DNA from: a virus | Lineage: Duplodnaviria > Caudoviricetes | Direction: 5' to 3' (one strand) | IMG/VR virus record: IMGVR_UViG_3300006153_000012 | Span: 14,045 to 78,044 of that record | Length of the DNA stretch: 64,000 nt | Part shown: positions 2,335-20,934 of the stretch, piece after piece | How positions within the stretch are numbered: the stretch's first letter is position 1 | Layout: each line of letters starts with the position of its first letter | The notes under the pieces: model-generated | The model's database searches: none | What the model was told of the DNA's origin: nothing | What the model saw: only the letters and a program-made list of their open reading frames with translations | Program-made: the position numbers and the translations under genes

Positions 2335-4713
2335 TTAATATTTTTTCATTTCCTGTAAAATCCTGTTATGTGCACGCATGCTTACTATATCCGAGAAATC
2401 TTCTGGGTTCTGTACGCCATGTACATGGATTCCGCCGACATCGACATTCATGTTTCGGTTCATGGTGCTGTTATTGTTGATTACCTCGACAGCCTTCTCC
2501 ATGGCTTCTGCCGCATTATTCATGGCATATGCTGGCCTCATAAATGCGTCCCTGTTCGCACTGAAATATTCCTCGAATTTCTTTATCATTTGATATTCCC
2601 TGTCATCTGGTGTGAGTGGGTACAACGTTCTTCCATCCTTAGTGATGATGGTTCCATCCACCAGTTTGACATTTCCATTCTCATAAGTCTTGAGCACTTC
2701 ACCCTTATTTTCCATGATCTGTTCGGTCTGCTCTTCATTGAAAATAACGGTGCCTTTTGGAAGATCCCCCATGGTTGGCTCAGTGGTAAGTTCCGCCCTG
2801 CCGTCAGGGTACACGGTAAGTTCCGGCTGCCCGTACTCAGAACGCAGGGCATTCCTCTCGTCATTTGGAAGTCCTTTATACCCTCCCGTCCCTCTTGCGA
2901 ACGCCTTTCCGACCGTGCCATCTGCATGCGCCGGGACTGTGCTGCCGGACACGGCGACACTGACGGACGGCATCCCGGATGACTCCAGCGTCTCTGAGAG
3001 GGCACGCAGGGAGTTTGCCGCGGCCGCACACTGATCCTGTATGGAGTCCGCCATCTTCCTGACCATCTCGACAATCTTCTCACATATGGACTGGATGGAT
3101 CTGTCGCCGTCAGTCGCGAAGTCACTGAAGGCTTTCAGCCACGGGTCTTCCAGCTTGGATGCCACCTCATCCCCGCCTGTCTGCATGATGTCTATGATGC
3201 TCCCGCCGTTGCCGCCCGGCTCGGAGCCGCCGCTGTTCCTGATGGGCTTGCTGCTCCCGGCTTTCTTCCCGGGGTCACTGCCGTCACCGCCGCCCACACC
3301 GATGATCTCCGCAATGCGCGCCTGCATTTCCTCCCATGCGGGAAGGTACTCCTCCGTTATCTTCCTGATCTGGTCATCGAAGGACGTGTTGCCGATGTCC
3401 AGTGCCTGGCTCAGGCTGTCCATCTGCCCCTGTATCGTTGTGACCGCATCGGATATGGCTGACGCAAGGCCAATGAACCCTGTCCCTGCCGGTGCCGCGT
3501 CACCATCTGTCATGGCGTTCCCATCCCCCATGGACGCGGCAGTGCCTATGACGGCGGAGAAGTCTATCTGTCTGAATTCAGCACATTTCAGCGCAATGTC
3601 GCCGAAGGCGGATGCAGTGTCCCTCAGCTTCTGCACATACCCCTCATCCCCGATTTCCGGGAACTTTATGCTGCCAAGCTGGGTGACAACCTCATCAACC
3701 AGCTTCTTCAGCTTCTCCAGTTCCGTGCCCAGCGGCGCGATGCTCTCGGACATGCCAGACACGCCCTCCTGTATACCGCCCACTGCGGCGGATGCCTCCC
3801 CTGCGCTTGTGGCAAGTCCTGCCGCAGAGTCCTTCACGTCACTGACGCTGTTGCTAAGACCGTCCAGTGTGACTGCCCCAAGGTTCTCAAACGCACCCTT
3901 GGTTGACTCAAGGTAGCTGATGGAGTCCGCGCTGACCCCGGAAAGCCTTGACAGCTGCTCCAGGATGCCGTCATTGCCACGGCTCATGTCCGCAAGGATG
4001 CCCACATAGGCGGCCTTCAGCTTCTCAAATTCCTCCTGTGAGCCGCTTAAAAGCGCGTCCATGTTGATGCCGAGTTCAGAAAGTGCCGCTTCCATCTGTG
4101 CATTCTCAAGCAGGTCTGTCAGTTCCTCGAACTGTGACTTGTAGTCCTCCATGCCCTTTATCATGGCATCGTAGCGTTGCTCCTCTTTGGCGATGATGTC
4201 GTCATAATGTTTATTGACTTTCTCGGCTTCCTTATCCAGTAAGTCAATTTTGTCCTGACGCAGTTCCTTCTCCAGTTCCAGATAGTCTATTTCCTTCTCA
4301 ATTTTGGAAATGTCAATTTCGAGTTTTATATCCTCCACTTCCTGCTTCGCGTCACGGATGCCTGACGTGTCAGCCTGGTATGACATCTGGCCGTCCTTGT
4401 AGACGAGATCCGTCCTCTGGTTCTGCATACGCTGCAGGTCGTATTCCGCTTTCTGCAGGTCAAGGGAACGTTTCCGTTCTTCGTTTGCGTCCTGCATCGC
4501 CTTGATCTCTTTTTCCTTGGCCTCTATCTGTTCCTCGATGCCCTCAATCTCGGTTTCATACTGCTCCTTCTTGGCTTCTATTTCCTCAAGCCTTGCGTCA
4601 CGTTCCGCTTCAATGGCAGATATCGCGGCATCCTTTTCATCATTGATTGCGTCTATGCGCTTGTCAATCTGCCTCGTGATGTAGCTGAAGGCGGACTCAT
4701 AGAGGGATTTCAT
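2335..4713 (-). CDS. Tail tape-measure protein, exon 3 (C-terminal, 792 aa)
   Basis: Coiled-coil Ala/Glu/Lys-rich ORF; begins ATGAAATCC directly after the predicted terminal G of the intron (4714); in frame with exon 2 (YLDG|MKSLYESAF). Confidence 0.85.
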   Translation of the reverse strand: MKSLYESAFSYITRQIDKRIDAINDEKDAAISAIEAERDARLEEIEAKKEQYETEIEGIEEQIEAKEKEIKAMQDANEERKRSLDLQKAEYDLQRMQNQRTDLVYKDGQMSYQADTSGIRDAKQEVEDIKLEIDISKIEKEIDYLELEKELRQDKIDLLDKEAEKVNKHYDDIIAKEEQRYDAMIKGMEDYKSQFEELTDLLENAQMEAALSELGINMDALLSGSQEEFEKLKAAYVGILADMSRGNDGILEQLSRLSGVSADSISYLESTKGAFENLGAVTLDGLSNSVSDVKDSAAGLATSAGEASAAVGGIQEGVSGMSESIAPLGTELEKLKKLVDEVVTQLGSIKFPEIGDEGYVQKLRDTASAFGDIALKCAEFRQIDFSAVIGTAASMGDGNAMTDGDAAPAGTGFIGLASAISDAVTTIQGQMDSLSQALDIGNTSFDDQIRKITEEYLPAWEEMQARIAEIIGVGGGDGSDPGKKAGSSKPIRNSGGSEPGGNGGSIIDIMQTGGDEVASKLEDPWLKAFSDFATDGDRSIQSICEKIVEMVRKMADSIQDQCAAAANSLRALSETLESSGMPSVSVAVSGSTVPAHADGTVGKAFARGTGGYKGLPNDERNALRSEYGQPELTVYPDGRAELTTEPTMGDLPKGTVIFNEEQTEQIMENKGEVLKTYENGNVKLVDGTIITKDGRTLYPLTPDDREYQMIKKFEEYFSANRDAFMRPAYAMNNAAEAMEKAVEVINNNSTMNRNMNVDVGGIHVHGVQNPEDFSDIVSMRAHNRILQEMKKY

Positions 4714-4954
4714 CAAATCTGTTACTTTCACCATGACTGGCTACTGACTATGTGCATACATAGCGGATAGTCATTTCTGGCTATCTTTCACATTTCATTT
4801 ATTTGGGATTATTGTGTGAGTTCGGACTGGATCTTCACCCTCCCTGATAGGGTAGGGGAGTAACGGAACCTTATATGCTTTGTATCACAATATAAGGTAT
4901 TACAGTCTCTACGGATTCTGGTTTTAGATAATACTAATTTAAAAATAAATATAC

Positions 4955-18999: not shown

Positions 19000-20934
19000 A
19001 CCTGTGTTTTTAAACCCAGCAAATAATCCTGCTCCGAGTCCGATAGATCCAAACAACCCAAGTTTGGAGGTTAGTGTGTCGATGATGTTCATAACTGATG
19101 TTAATCCGTCAACGACTGTTTTCATGTCACTTCTTTTAAAGAGGTTTTGGGCTACTGATGTGGATGTTTCGGATAGGCGGTTGAGTTTGAAATCGAGACT
19201 ATCCATAATTACTGACATTTCTCTATCTGCTGATCCAGCACTATTTTCCATCACTTCAATAGCAGAGCGGATTTGATCAAAATTTTTGATCATTGCCGCG
19301 CCTACTTGAGCACGATTTTTCCCAAATAATTTGTTAAGTAATTCATTTTGTGACTTTGCATCAATTTCGTCCCAAATGTCAGAAATATCACCAAGGTAAT
19401 CAACTAAATCTCTGTATTCTGTTTGGGAAGAATCAGTAAATAAAGAAATTCCTTGACCATTATTACTTGCAACTTTTGTCAAATCAATGACCTCGCCCTT
19501 AATATTAGCAAGATCTTCACTAAATTCTTCAGTTTCCTCGTCATAAGACCTAACACGCAAAGCGATTGAACGGATAGCATTACCTACCTGTGATGCATCT
19601 TGAACAATTTCTTGTGCTCCAGTAAAAAGTGCAATATTCGACTCGATTGTTCCTCCAACGGCGGCCATTGCAGCAGAAGATTTTCTTAAACCTTCGGCTA
19701 TTTCTGCGTTAGAAGTTCCAAATTTGTTACCTACGTCATTGATTTTACTAAGTATTCCATCTAATACATCATCAACTTCTACATCATAAGCACGCATCAT
19801 AGATACTAAAGAAGTAGTGGCTTCGTCAACATCCATGCCTGGTGAGATGCTTGCAAATTGGGAACTGAATTTTGCCATTTTTGTAGCTGCCTCACCGCTA
19901 GAAAATCCGAGCCTTGACCAGGCGGAACTTTGATTAATTATCTCCTCAGTAGTAACCCCCATCTGTTTTGCTACTTTATTAGAAGAATAATAAAAATCTT
20001 CCAGCTCACTATTTGTCATAGTAGTAGTCTTTTTCAGATCCACCAAAGCAGTATCCAGTGCCTTAACAGTTCCTAATCCACCCTTAACAGACTGGATCGC
20101 TTTCATTACCAAGAAAGTTGAACTCGTCCAATAGCTAAATGAACTCATTCCTTCTCTCAAAGTCTGAAAGAATGTTTTTCCTAGTTTTCCAGCATTACGG
20201 GCTTGTACAACTGCATTATTAAACTCCTGATTTAACTTTGCAATTTCTTCTCTTGTAAGCTTTGCACCTTGTGTAGTTTCATTAAATATTCTCATAAATT
20301 CTCCGGAATATTTAACAGCTTTGCCATTTTTACTCATAAAATCATTAACTTGATTGTGTAAAGAAGAAATAGCAGAGTCCTTAGCCATTTCAGCATTCAT
20401 TTTACGAACATCATTAGTAATTTTCTGATATTCAGTATCAAGCTTTTTGCTGGACTCGATTAATCTTTTTTGTGTTGCTTCTGACTTGTTATTTGCATAA
20501 GCTTCTGATGCTTGTGTTAATTTTGTCAATGCATCACTCAATGCAGCGGTGTTAATCCTTGCCTGACCTTCACTGTCAGTCCATTGTCTCGTCCTTGCAA
20601 TCAGAGTTTCAACTTTGGATTCATATCCGCCTGTCTCCATTGAAAGTTGAATTTTATCGGCTCTTGATGTTGCGTTATTTACATCTCTGATCACTTGGTT
20701 TATCGAAGATAAAATCTTGCTTGTATCAATATTTAATTTTCCTGAGCTTGCTTGATTTAAAGCAGTTTGTATCTGTTTGGCAAAATTTTGTAATTCCTGC
20801 TTACTTGCTGATGTGTCTAATACAGTTTTTAGATTTATATTTTTACTTTCAAGCTGTCCTTTTAGCTTATTTAGATCTGTTATTGCATTTGATGTATCTA
20901 ATCGTGTAATTAATTGGACAATAAATTCATCCAT
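19000..20934 (-). CDS. Tail tape-measure protein, exon 1 (TP901-like core region, 645 aa)
   Basis: LDTALVDLKKTT, AWSRLG, AEGLRKSSAAM, IGNAIRSIALR-type TMP motifs; ORF otherwise ends 14 codons after the predicted splice site. Confidence 0.85.

Follow-up and report, generated by a model that had tools for sequence, protein, structure and literature searches.

A phage tape-measure gene split by two predicted group I-type introns, one of which carries a multigene cargo with putative defence genes

We describe here a stretch of 64,000 nucleotides (nt) of DNA, called the window throughout, from a virus of the Caudoviricetes (positions 14,045 to 78,044 of the 78-kb IMG/VR viral contig IMGVR_UViG_3300006153_000012), in which the gene for the tape-measure protein is interrupted twice. 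We consider it likely that the three resulting open reading frames (ORFs) are exons of one gene, and that the two inserts are group I-type introns removed from the late transcript, with restoration of a 2441-amino-acid frame. An earlier note, made from the letters of this DNA alone, had proposed three such exons that can only be rebuilt by removing two intervening sequences. That the gene is split is borne out by what follows; the words "can only" we would put conditionally. The larger insert, intron 1, belongs to a family of mobile introns that occupy the same tape-measure site in more than 100 gut-phage contigs.

All three exons lie on the minus strand, and their exact ends can be read directly from the sequence. 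Exon 1 (20970-19000) encodes 657 amino acids ending in KNTG and matches PF10145 at 1.6e-20; exon 2 (9040-6065) encodes 992, from IFKT to YLDG, and exon 3 (4713-2335) encodes 792 beginning with MKSL, both with matches to tape-measure PHROGs. The three ORFs lie where the earlier note had placed them, are open over 7.3 kb, and join in frame as it had described, with the junction peptides KNTG/IFKT (junction 1) and YLDG/MKSL (junction 2), although the joined length is 657+992+792 = 2441 residues rather than its figure of about 2,430.

The alignment to uninterrupted tape-measure homologues that the same note had called for finds the gene colinear at both junctions. An alignment of the joined protein (residues 242-785) with the uninterrupted 2759-residue tape measure of locus L006 crosses junction 1 with no gap, and among the relatives of exon 1 the gene is either uninterrupted (L006, L012) or broken off at the same codon. 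At junction 2, contig L303 runs continuously through YLDG and MKSL, with 78% identity over 381 residues, and one contig of sequencing run X3 has position 4713 fused to 6066, at the same point; exon 2 as a whole is colinear with both L006 and L303. The codon for the last glycine is GGC in both of these intron-less forms (L303 and the X3 contig), as opposed to GGU in the intron-bearing allele, which fits the need for a U at a group I 5' splice site. The ratio of nonsynonymous to synonymous substitution rates for exon 1 against L253 and L237 is saturated.

Exon 3 has an unusual composition, its region 2500-4500 reaching a G+C content of 54-60% versus 22-45% for the rest of the window and encoding a Gly-, Ala- and Ser-rich protein. 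In L009, the exon 1 homologue has two further breaks, at 10756-11943 (1.2 kb) and 12320-12862 (0.54 kb), from which some tape-measure genes of this group have at least three inserts. Upstream of the tape-measure gene of another related phage, L008:7765-7831 matches the skipping-rope RNA of Rfam (RF02924) at 39.2 bits, above the gathering score.

Both inserts are bounded as group I introns would be. Intron 1 (18999-9041, minus strand, 9959 nt) consists of a 5' group I-type core, then cargo, then an acceptor module ending in G at 9041. Its guide (18963-18974, minus) pairs through its 5' half with the start of exon 2, as P10, and through its 3' half with the end of exon 1, as P1. Intron 2 (6064-4714, minus, 1351 nt) is IA-like, with a P7.1 hairpin, and its P1 and P10 guide is the first 15 nt of the intron (6050-6064). 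At both 5' splice sites the 5' exon ends in a U opposite a guide G, giving the U.G pair that had been noted, and the second insert likewise terminates in G, at 4714. The guides stand at the coordinates given for them earlier, and each is unique in the window. The number of chance matches expected, counting both strands of 64 kb and allowing mismatches, is 0.25 for the 12-mer at 18963-18974 and 0.14 for the 15-mer at 6050-6064; since each guide is unique and lies less than 40 nt from the right junction on the right strand, their placement is far beyond chance. A guide scan that allowed G.U everywhere was discarded as far too permissive. The group I reading of both inserts is further supported, beyond the guides, by an intron anatomy that is backed by covariation in relatives.

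For intron 1 these relatives are plentiful. When the final 6 nt of the intron and the first 11 nt of exon 2 serve as the query, 74 loci are returned; the extended P10 guide returns more than 118 stretches, about half of the distinct ones being true members. All share one insertion point in the large tape-measure genes of gut phages, after the KN(x)G codon. The length of the intron, where both ends share a locus, is 1023 nt in L055 and 3.4-8.5 kb in the others; for records G002 and G003 the distances from the 5' junction to the last acceptor are about 14 and 16 kb, apparent spans for which contiguity is assumed. Intron 1 is mobile and has spread horizontally: its core is 93% identical to that of L253, and the adjoining exon proteins are 31% identical.

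The intron 1 family has group I anatomy, with P1, P3, P4, P6, P7 and P8 covarying in pseudoknot order. P1 pairs ACAGGU with GCCUGU in the window, GCAGGU with GCCUGC or GUAGGU with GCCUAC in the closest relatives, and GUCGGU with GCCGAC in types A and D. In type B, GUCGGC faces ACCGAC and the U.G of the splice site becomes C.A, a pair that alone among substitutions preserves the wobble geometry. P10 is contiguous with P1, its complementarity to the start of exon 2 extending to 14 nt in many members, and every 3' end in the family reads AGUAUG. For the core helices, scoring covers types A, B, D and L009, with type C read by eye, and whole-core MAFFT alignments across types are unreliable. The P4 strands (P and Q elements) are UGCUG/CAGCA, UGCGA/UCGCA, AUCGG/CCGAU and UUCGG/CCGAA, with a pairing score of 4.8 for own partners versus 2.2 for partners of other types. 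The P3 strands, found before J3/4 and directly after the 5' strand of P7, are UGGAA/UUCCA, AGAG/CUCU, UAGGG/UCCUA, CAGG/CCUG, CGCCC/GGGCG and CACCC/GGGUG. Both helices keep the group I order, and the own partner fits better than those of other types; a first P3 candidate was dropped when it failed in L034 and L060. For P6, P6a, P7 and P8 in 12 sequences, 89.6% of cells are paired versus 69.9% in shuffles, with changes on both sides in 15 of 20 pairs, a result equalled by 0 of 500 shuffles and set against 24-48% in slid controls; the structure was read from the same 12 sequences, which somewhat favours it. The type C introns (L017, L018, L155) have, by eye, near-consensus R and S elements and a 7-bp P3.

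The window's own core (18305-18999, minus), which runs from P1 to the P9 region according to alignment and RNAalifold, is of a type shared by three metagenome contigs, at 93%, 82% and 78% identity. A scan of viral contigs for its R element found nothing, the same scan of metagenomes gave 3 true relatives among 82 mostly chance matches, and the phage collection held no blastn match to exon 1 together with the core. Of the 138 pairs that RNAalifold predicts for this core type, 30 show compensatory changes, among them pairs in P1, the P1-loop hairpin, P2-type hairpins, a long P5-type stem and P8 (18626-18602, minus). P7 (18642-18638 with 18593-18589, minus) was placed by analogy with type C as GAGCA with UGCUC, a 5-bp helix that is perfect in L268 and L237.

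Intron 2 is, for its part, an ordinary mobile phage group I intron, save that it carries a MazF-like toxin ORF in place of a recognised homing endonuclease. By eye, its elements follow the order P3, P4, P5, P4', P6, P7, P7.1, P3', P8, P7' and P9 hairpins. On the minus strand, a P2 hairpin (6049-6032) is followed by P3 (6022-6018 with 4864-4860), P4 (6012-6009 with 5985-5982), a long P6 with the ORF inside it (5973-5964 with 4927-4918) and P7 (4907-4903, with an R-like element, paired to 4829-4825, with an S-like element); the P7.1 hairpin (4897-4869) comes after the 5' strand of P7 and before the 3' strand of P3. When viral contigs are scanned with the R element, they yield 26 loci of the same architecture with other stems and exon contexts, including ORF-less versions of about 330 nt, and L288, L293, L298 and L280 repeat the layout (U.G in P1, P10, terminal G) with different exon sequences. 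Across 14 family members, RNAalifold finds P7 invariant (14/14), a 10-bp P7.1 and a 6-bp P9, with compensatory changes at 12 of 22 pairs, in which P7.1 and P9 are rich. The P3 strands co-change, by eye, between the window, L288, L293 and L298; P4 is invariant, and hence uninformative for covariation.

The MazF/PemK-like ORF in the P6 loop (5119-5895, minus) encodes 258 amino acids, matches PF02452 at 5.9e-16 and phrog_1936, and has no family match in its first 120 residues. Between it and the 3' strand of P6 lies a unit on the minus strand (4960-5117) in which a strong promoter-like element (5117-5089) is followed by some 130 nt that hold no ORF and then by a terminator hairpin; L282 carries a similar unit. 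Its RNA might act as antitoxin to the MazF-like protein or regulate it.

How might the far larger intron 1 find its distant acceptor? We propose that the ribozyme core of about 0.65 kb at the 5' end would hold the 5' exon through P1, and that the 3' splice site would be located through P10, of up to 14 nt in many relatives, together with the terminal G, and also through constant hairpin loops pairing with a complementary element of the core. Everything between core and acceptor module would then be free cargo, here 9 kb in which each gene would have its own promoter and terminator. Late transcription would read through the internal terminators, or two intron halves would meet in trans. Splicing of this copy, like the choice between these two routes, is a prediction from sequence.

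The true acceptor (module a, 9041-9121, minus) has three hairpins with differing stems, each bearing the 7-nt loop CUCCACA, and the terminal AGUAUG (z -4.56). The core has a 12-bp hairpin (18439-18468, minus; z -4.0) whose 6-nt loop, GUGGAG, is complementary to these, and two more GUGGAG-loop hairpins lie at 17963-18000 on the same strand, the second followed by a U run and terminator-like on the sense strand. In the family at large, one to four hairpins of 5-8 bp stand upstream of the 3' splice site, with loops of the classes UCAAACA, CUCCACA and CCCAACA and stems that vary by locus (more than 15 different stems carry the loop family). A fixed core position, just 5' of a conserved pseudoknot-like element, changes with loop class: GUUUGA(A) goes with UCAAACA (types A, B and L041; in type C the match is in a terminal hairpin loop), UUGUUGG with CCCAACA (L009) and GUGGAG with CUCCACA (records G002 and G003), the element in G005 being UGUGGG. 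The window is a variant, in that its canonical core position suits CCCAACA-type loops and the three extra GUGGAG-loop hairpins match CUCCACA instead. We infer that a loop-receptor tertiary contact ties the distant acceptor to the core. Blunt statistics (the longest complement anywhere in the core, or co-occurrence of loop types per locus) are noisy and give no clean separation, in part owing to the likeness of the P10 guide to the loop complement, and the argument for docking rests on positional comparison of core element and loop class.

Acceptor-like modules stand in tandem: intron 1 has three, ending at 9041, 11547 and 16272, each with 14-27 nt from the start of an exon 2 behind it. Module b (11547-11650, minus; z -3.75) has four CUCCAC-loop hairpins, a terminal G at 11547 and a 14-nt copy of the exon 2 start; its use would add 15 codons and then a stop, yielding a truncated protein. 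Module c (16272-16305, minus) has a weak hairpin without a stable fold, the terminal AGUAUG and, beginning at 16271, a pseudo-exon with a 27-nt match to the start of exon 2 in another phage (L085), and is probably a dead remnant carried in with a cassette. Similar arrays occur in L021/L033/L034, L042, L053 and L054. Some contigs of runs X16 and X3 fuse acceptor modules, skipping a cassette (9050-11532; 11553-11633), with short flanks of 21-22 nt; these may be strain differences in cassette content or repeat artefacts.

Several observations weigh against the view that this gene is restored by splicing, and three of them, namely a mismatch in P7 of intron 1, three internal terminators on the sense strand and the two extra acceptor-like modules, had been left unweighed in the earlier note. 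P7 of the window and of L253 has the strand UGAUC, which makes its third pair a G.A mismatch; for P3 of this core type the best candidate has a rival in a local hairpin, which is supported by a compensatory change in the window; terminator-like sites on the sense strand stand at 17978-17963, 16736-16717 and 12692-12663 within intron 1; and module b looks as good as the true acceptor. The Rfam model Intron_gpI (RF00028) finds no match to intron 1 and its relatives at permissive thresholds, nor to intron 2 up to E 10 in the window or in its ORF-less relatives. The same model does detect three other introns in L288. At the level of RNA, contigs of two metatranscriptome runs (X16, X17), one uncertain run and the source DNA run contain no 9040/19000 joint and no RNA-level 4713/6065 joint; the RNA contig coverage is sparse and comes from relatives, such that absent joints are not evidence against splicing. 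The only joined form of intron 2, from run X3, has a synonymous change, and the run is probably DNA.

These points bear first on the possibility that intron 1 is dead, swollen by island insertions and worn by point mutations, in a phage that is decaying, defective or equipped with a truncated tape measure. The P7 mismatch, the terminators, the competing acceptor modules, the lack of an RNA junction and a CheckV completeness of 48% for the contig could all be so explained, and the window copy may indeed be weakened. Yet the 5.4 kb of exons 2 and 3 downstream of the insert remain fully open and in frame, the P1 and P10 guides are perfect, and the same P7 mismatch recurs in a second, independently assembled contig (L253) whose exon is open too. 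Large cargo introns are moreover the rule in the family (3.4-8.5 kb, with the apparent spans beyond 14 kb in two relatives), and the same DNA is present in several mouse-gut metagenome runs. We therefore hold a dead intron to be unlikely, if still worth taking seriously.

A second alternative is that the gene is spliced in trans, a transcript of exon 1 and core stopping near 17963, a second RNA supplying the acceptor and exon 2, and the complementary loops joining both. The terminator-like hairpins directly after the core and after cargo genes would suit such an arrangement, as would the three GUGGAG loops near the core, the three CUCCACA loops at the true acceptor and the covariation of loop and core element across the family. 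Loop pairing would, however, serve docking in cis equally well; the sequence just upstream of 9121 shows no convincing promoter on the sense strand, and the gene adjoining the acceptor is on the opposite strand. To our knowledge, natural trans-splicing group I introns are known only from organelles, which also counts against this alternative, and we judge it improbable.

Site-specific excision or insertion at the DNA level before late expression, or three ORFs translated into separate, unjoined proteins, we regard as very improbable: the tandem modules each ending in a short copy of the exon 2 start do recall cassette arrays at an attachment site, and variant inter-module joints with short flanks exist in some runs, but no recombinase or transposase family was found among the window cargo ORFs searched, neither insert is flanked by direct repeats (as had been reported before), base-pair covariation that includes G.U and C.A wobbles fits RNA pairing, the source DNA run X1 holds the intron-bearing form and, against separate proteins, ORF 1 runs 14 codons into intron 1 while ORFs 2 and 3 are without correctly placed upstream ribosome sites (both read by eye). 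Removal of two group I-type introns from a single late transcript thus remains the reading we favour.

The cargo of intron 1 lies on both strands, several genes being transcribed against the sense strand. Directly after the core, an ORF for a 72-amino-acid membrane-type protein (18050-18268, plus) has its own promoter (17886-17913), which agrees with the consensus at 11 of 12 positions and includes TG, as well as a 5' leader with two CUCCAC-loop hairpins on the plus strand and a terminator (18273-18300); units homologous to 17886-18300 are found in L003, L017 and L034. The first sense gene (16767-17810, minus) is of the DUF262 family (PF03235) and NsnA-like (8.6e-32), with a terminator at 16736-16717. 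Two helix-turn-helix regulator genes, assigned by family matches (15957-16250 and 16293-16715, plus), are followed by a block of three sense genes without family match (12709-15789, minus; 533, 284 and 213 amino acids), which ends in a terminator at 12692-12663. Taken from the ORF list, an ORF of 220 amino acids with a signal-peptide-like start comes next (11713-12375, plus). A gene with Mrr_N and DUF262 domains (9984-11462, plus) resembles NsnA (2e-60) and PD-T4-2_A (1.2e-54), and a lipoprotein-like ORF with, by eye, a signal peptide and lipobox (9146-9817, plus) adjoins the acceptor. Both DUF262 genes match PADLOC models over their full length and are predicted anti-phage defence genes.

Such cargo recurs. 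In 10 of 13 related cargo introns, the sense gene that comes first downstream of the core is of the DUF262 family, and in 9 the antisense gene nearest to the acceptor is a zinc-ribbon ORF; an NsnB-like ATPase (8e-62) and an NYN/HEC-09 gene are also found as cargo. No intron-encoded nuclease of the LAGLIDADG, GIY-YIG, HNH or His-Cys box type was found among the cargo ORFs searched, and the recurrent DUF262 gene and zinc-ribbon ORF are homing nuclease candidates only. In L304 (2240-3084; record G005), the ORF after the intron core appears by eye to be TnpB-like (IS605-type); if so, that relative is an IStron-like chimera. Within the cargo of another related intron, L017:5167-5279 gives a below-threshold match (37.5 bits, E 3e-4) to the Bacteroides small RNA BTnc231, which may hint at the host. 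The ORF-less relative of intron 2 in L288 shares its locus with the three other group I introns that Rfam detects there (4194-4537, 71.9 bits; 6095-6305, 23.7 bits; 8451-8828, 44.7 bits), and this locus is a heavily intron-ridden region.

Taken together, these features suggest to us, quite tentatively, that the intron 1 family might be a modular cassette platform. Through a hook-and-loop pairing, the ribozyme would reach a splice site at a distance of 10-16 kb, which may even be on another RNA; cassettes would arrive with their own acceptor and a stub of the donor's exon 2, building tandem arrays; and alternative acceptors may couple cargo expression to late transcription. We would not be surprised to see this picture fail in one or more of its parts.

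If the introns do splice, an essential virion gene would also shelter defence and toxin genes that are exchanged horizontally, with splicing neutralising the in-frame insertion and homing to a conserved site spreading the cargo between unrelated phages. The known size and content of bacterial group I introns would be extended, and a new kind of defence-island hotspot would be added. Long-range selection of a splice site by loop-receptor docking would then occur in nature, in a form that is testable and reusable in RNA engineering. In current annotation, giant tape-measure genes of gut phages appear as sets of ORFs separated by "islands".

Interrupted tape-measure genes have precedents. Group I introns were described in 2008 at three sites (TMP-IVS1-3) of the tape-measure genes of prophages of the Bacillus cereus group (PMC2504315), and splicing of the interrupted tape-measure gene of Vibrio phage ICP1 was demonstrated in 2023 by RNA sequencing and reverse-transcription PCR (PMC10448857). 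As in the present case, an intron sits in an essential, conserved tail gene, with several sites per gene (PMC2504315, PMC10448857), one site may hold different introns, and intron content varies between isolates. Those introns range in length from a few hundred nt up to some 1-2 kb and are either empty or contain one to two homing endonuclease genes, whereas here we see 10 kb, some ten genes on both strands, defence-type genes, tandem acceptor modules and putative docking hairpins. Tape-measure genes split by group I introns are thus already published; the multigene defence cargo, the tandem acceptors and the predicted loop docking are new.

The closest parallel to the layout of intron 1 is offered by the IStrons (CdISt1, BcISt1), in which a 5' group I core carries unrelated cargo to a distant 3' splice site (PMC4227781). 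Like them, intron 1 would be removed whole as RNA, and the host gene would survive. IStrons differ in that their cargo, an IS200/IS605 or IS607 transposon, moves the element, which inserts at many sites. Intron 1 does not group with them: it shows no transposase in the window, a single conserved site, and defence and accessory cargo.

Phage IA-type group I introns with an ORF in a loop include those of T4 td and nrdB, SPO1 and Twort. Intron 2 resembles these in its P1 and P10, U.G pair and terminal G, in the placing of P7.1 after P7 and before the 3' strand of P3, and in having its ORF in a peripheral loop, and departs from them in that the ORF is MazF/PemK-like rather than an endonuclease and in its lack of a match to the Rfam model. 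Our search of the literature turned up no paper that connects group I introns to DUF262 or to defence cargo. Defence islands and hotspots do occur in phage and prophage genomes, and the intron 1 family is like them in offering swappable defence sets (NsnA, NsnB, PD-T4-2, NYN/HEC-09) at one fixed locus. Unlike those hotspots, it lies inside the frame of an essential structural gene, where RNA splicing is predicted to make it harmless.

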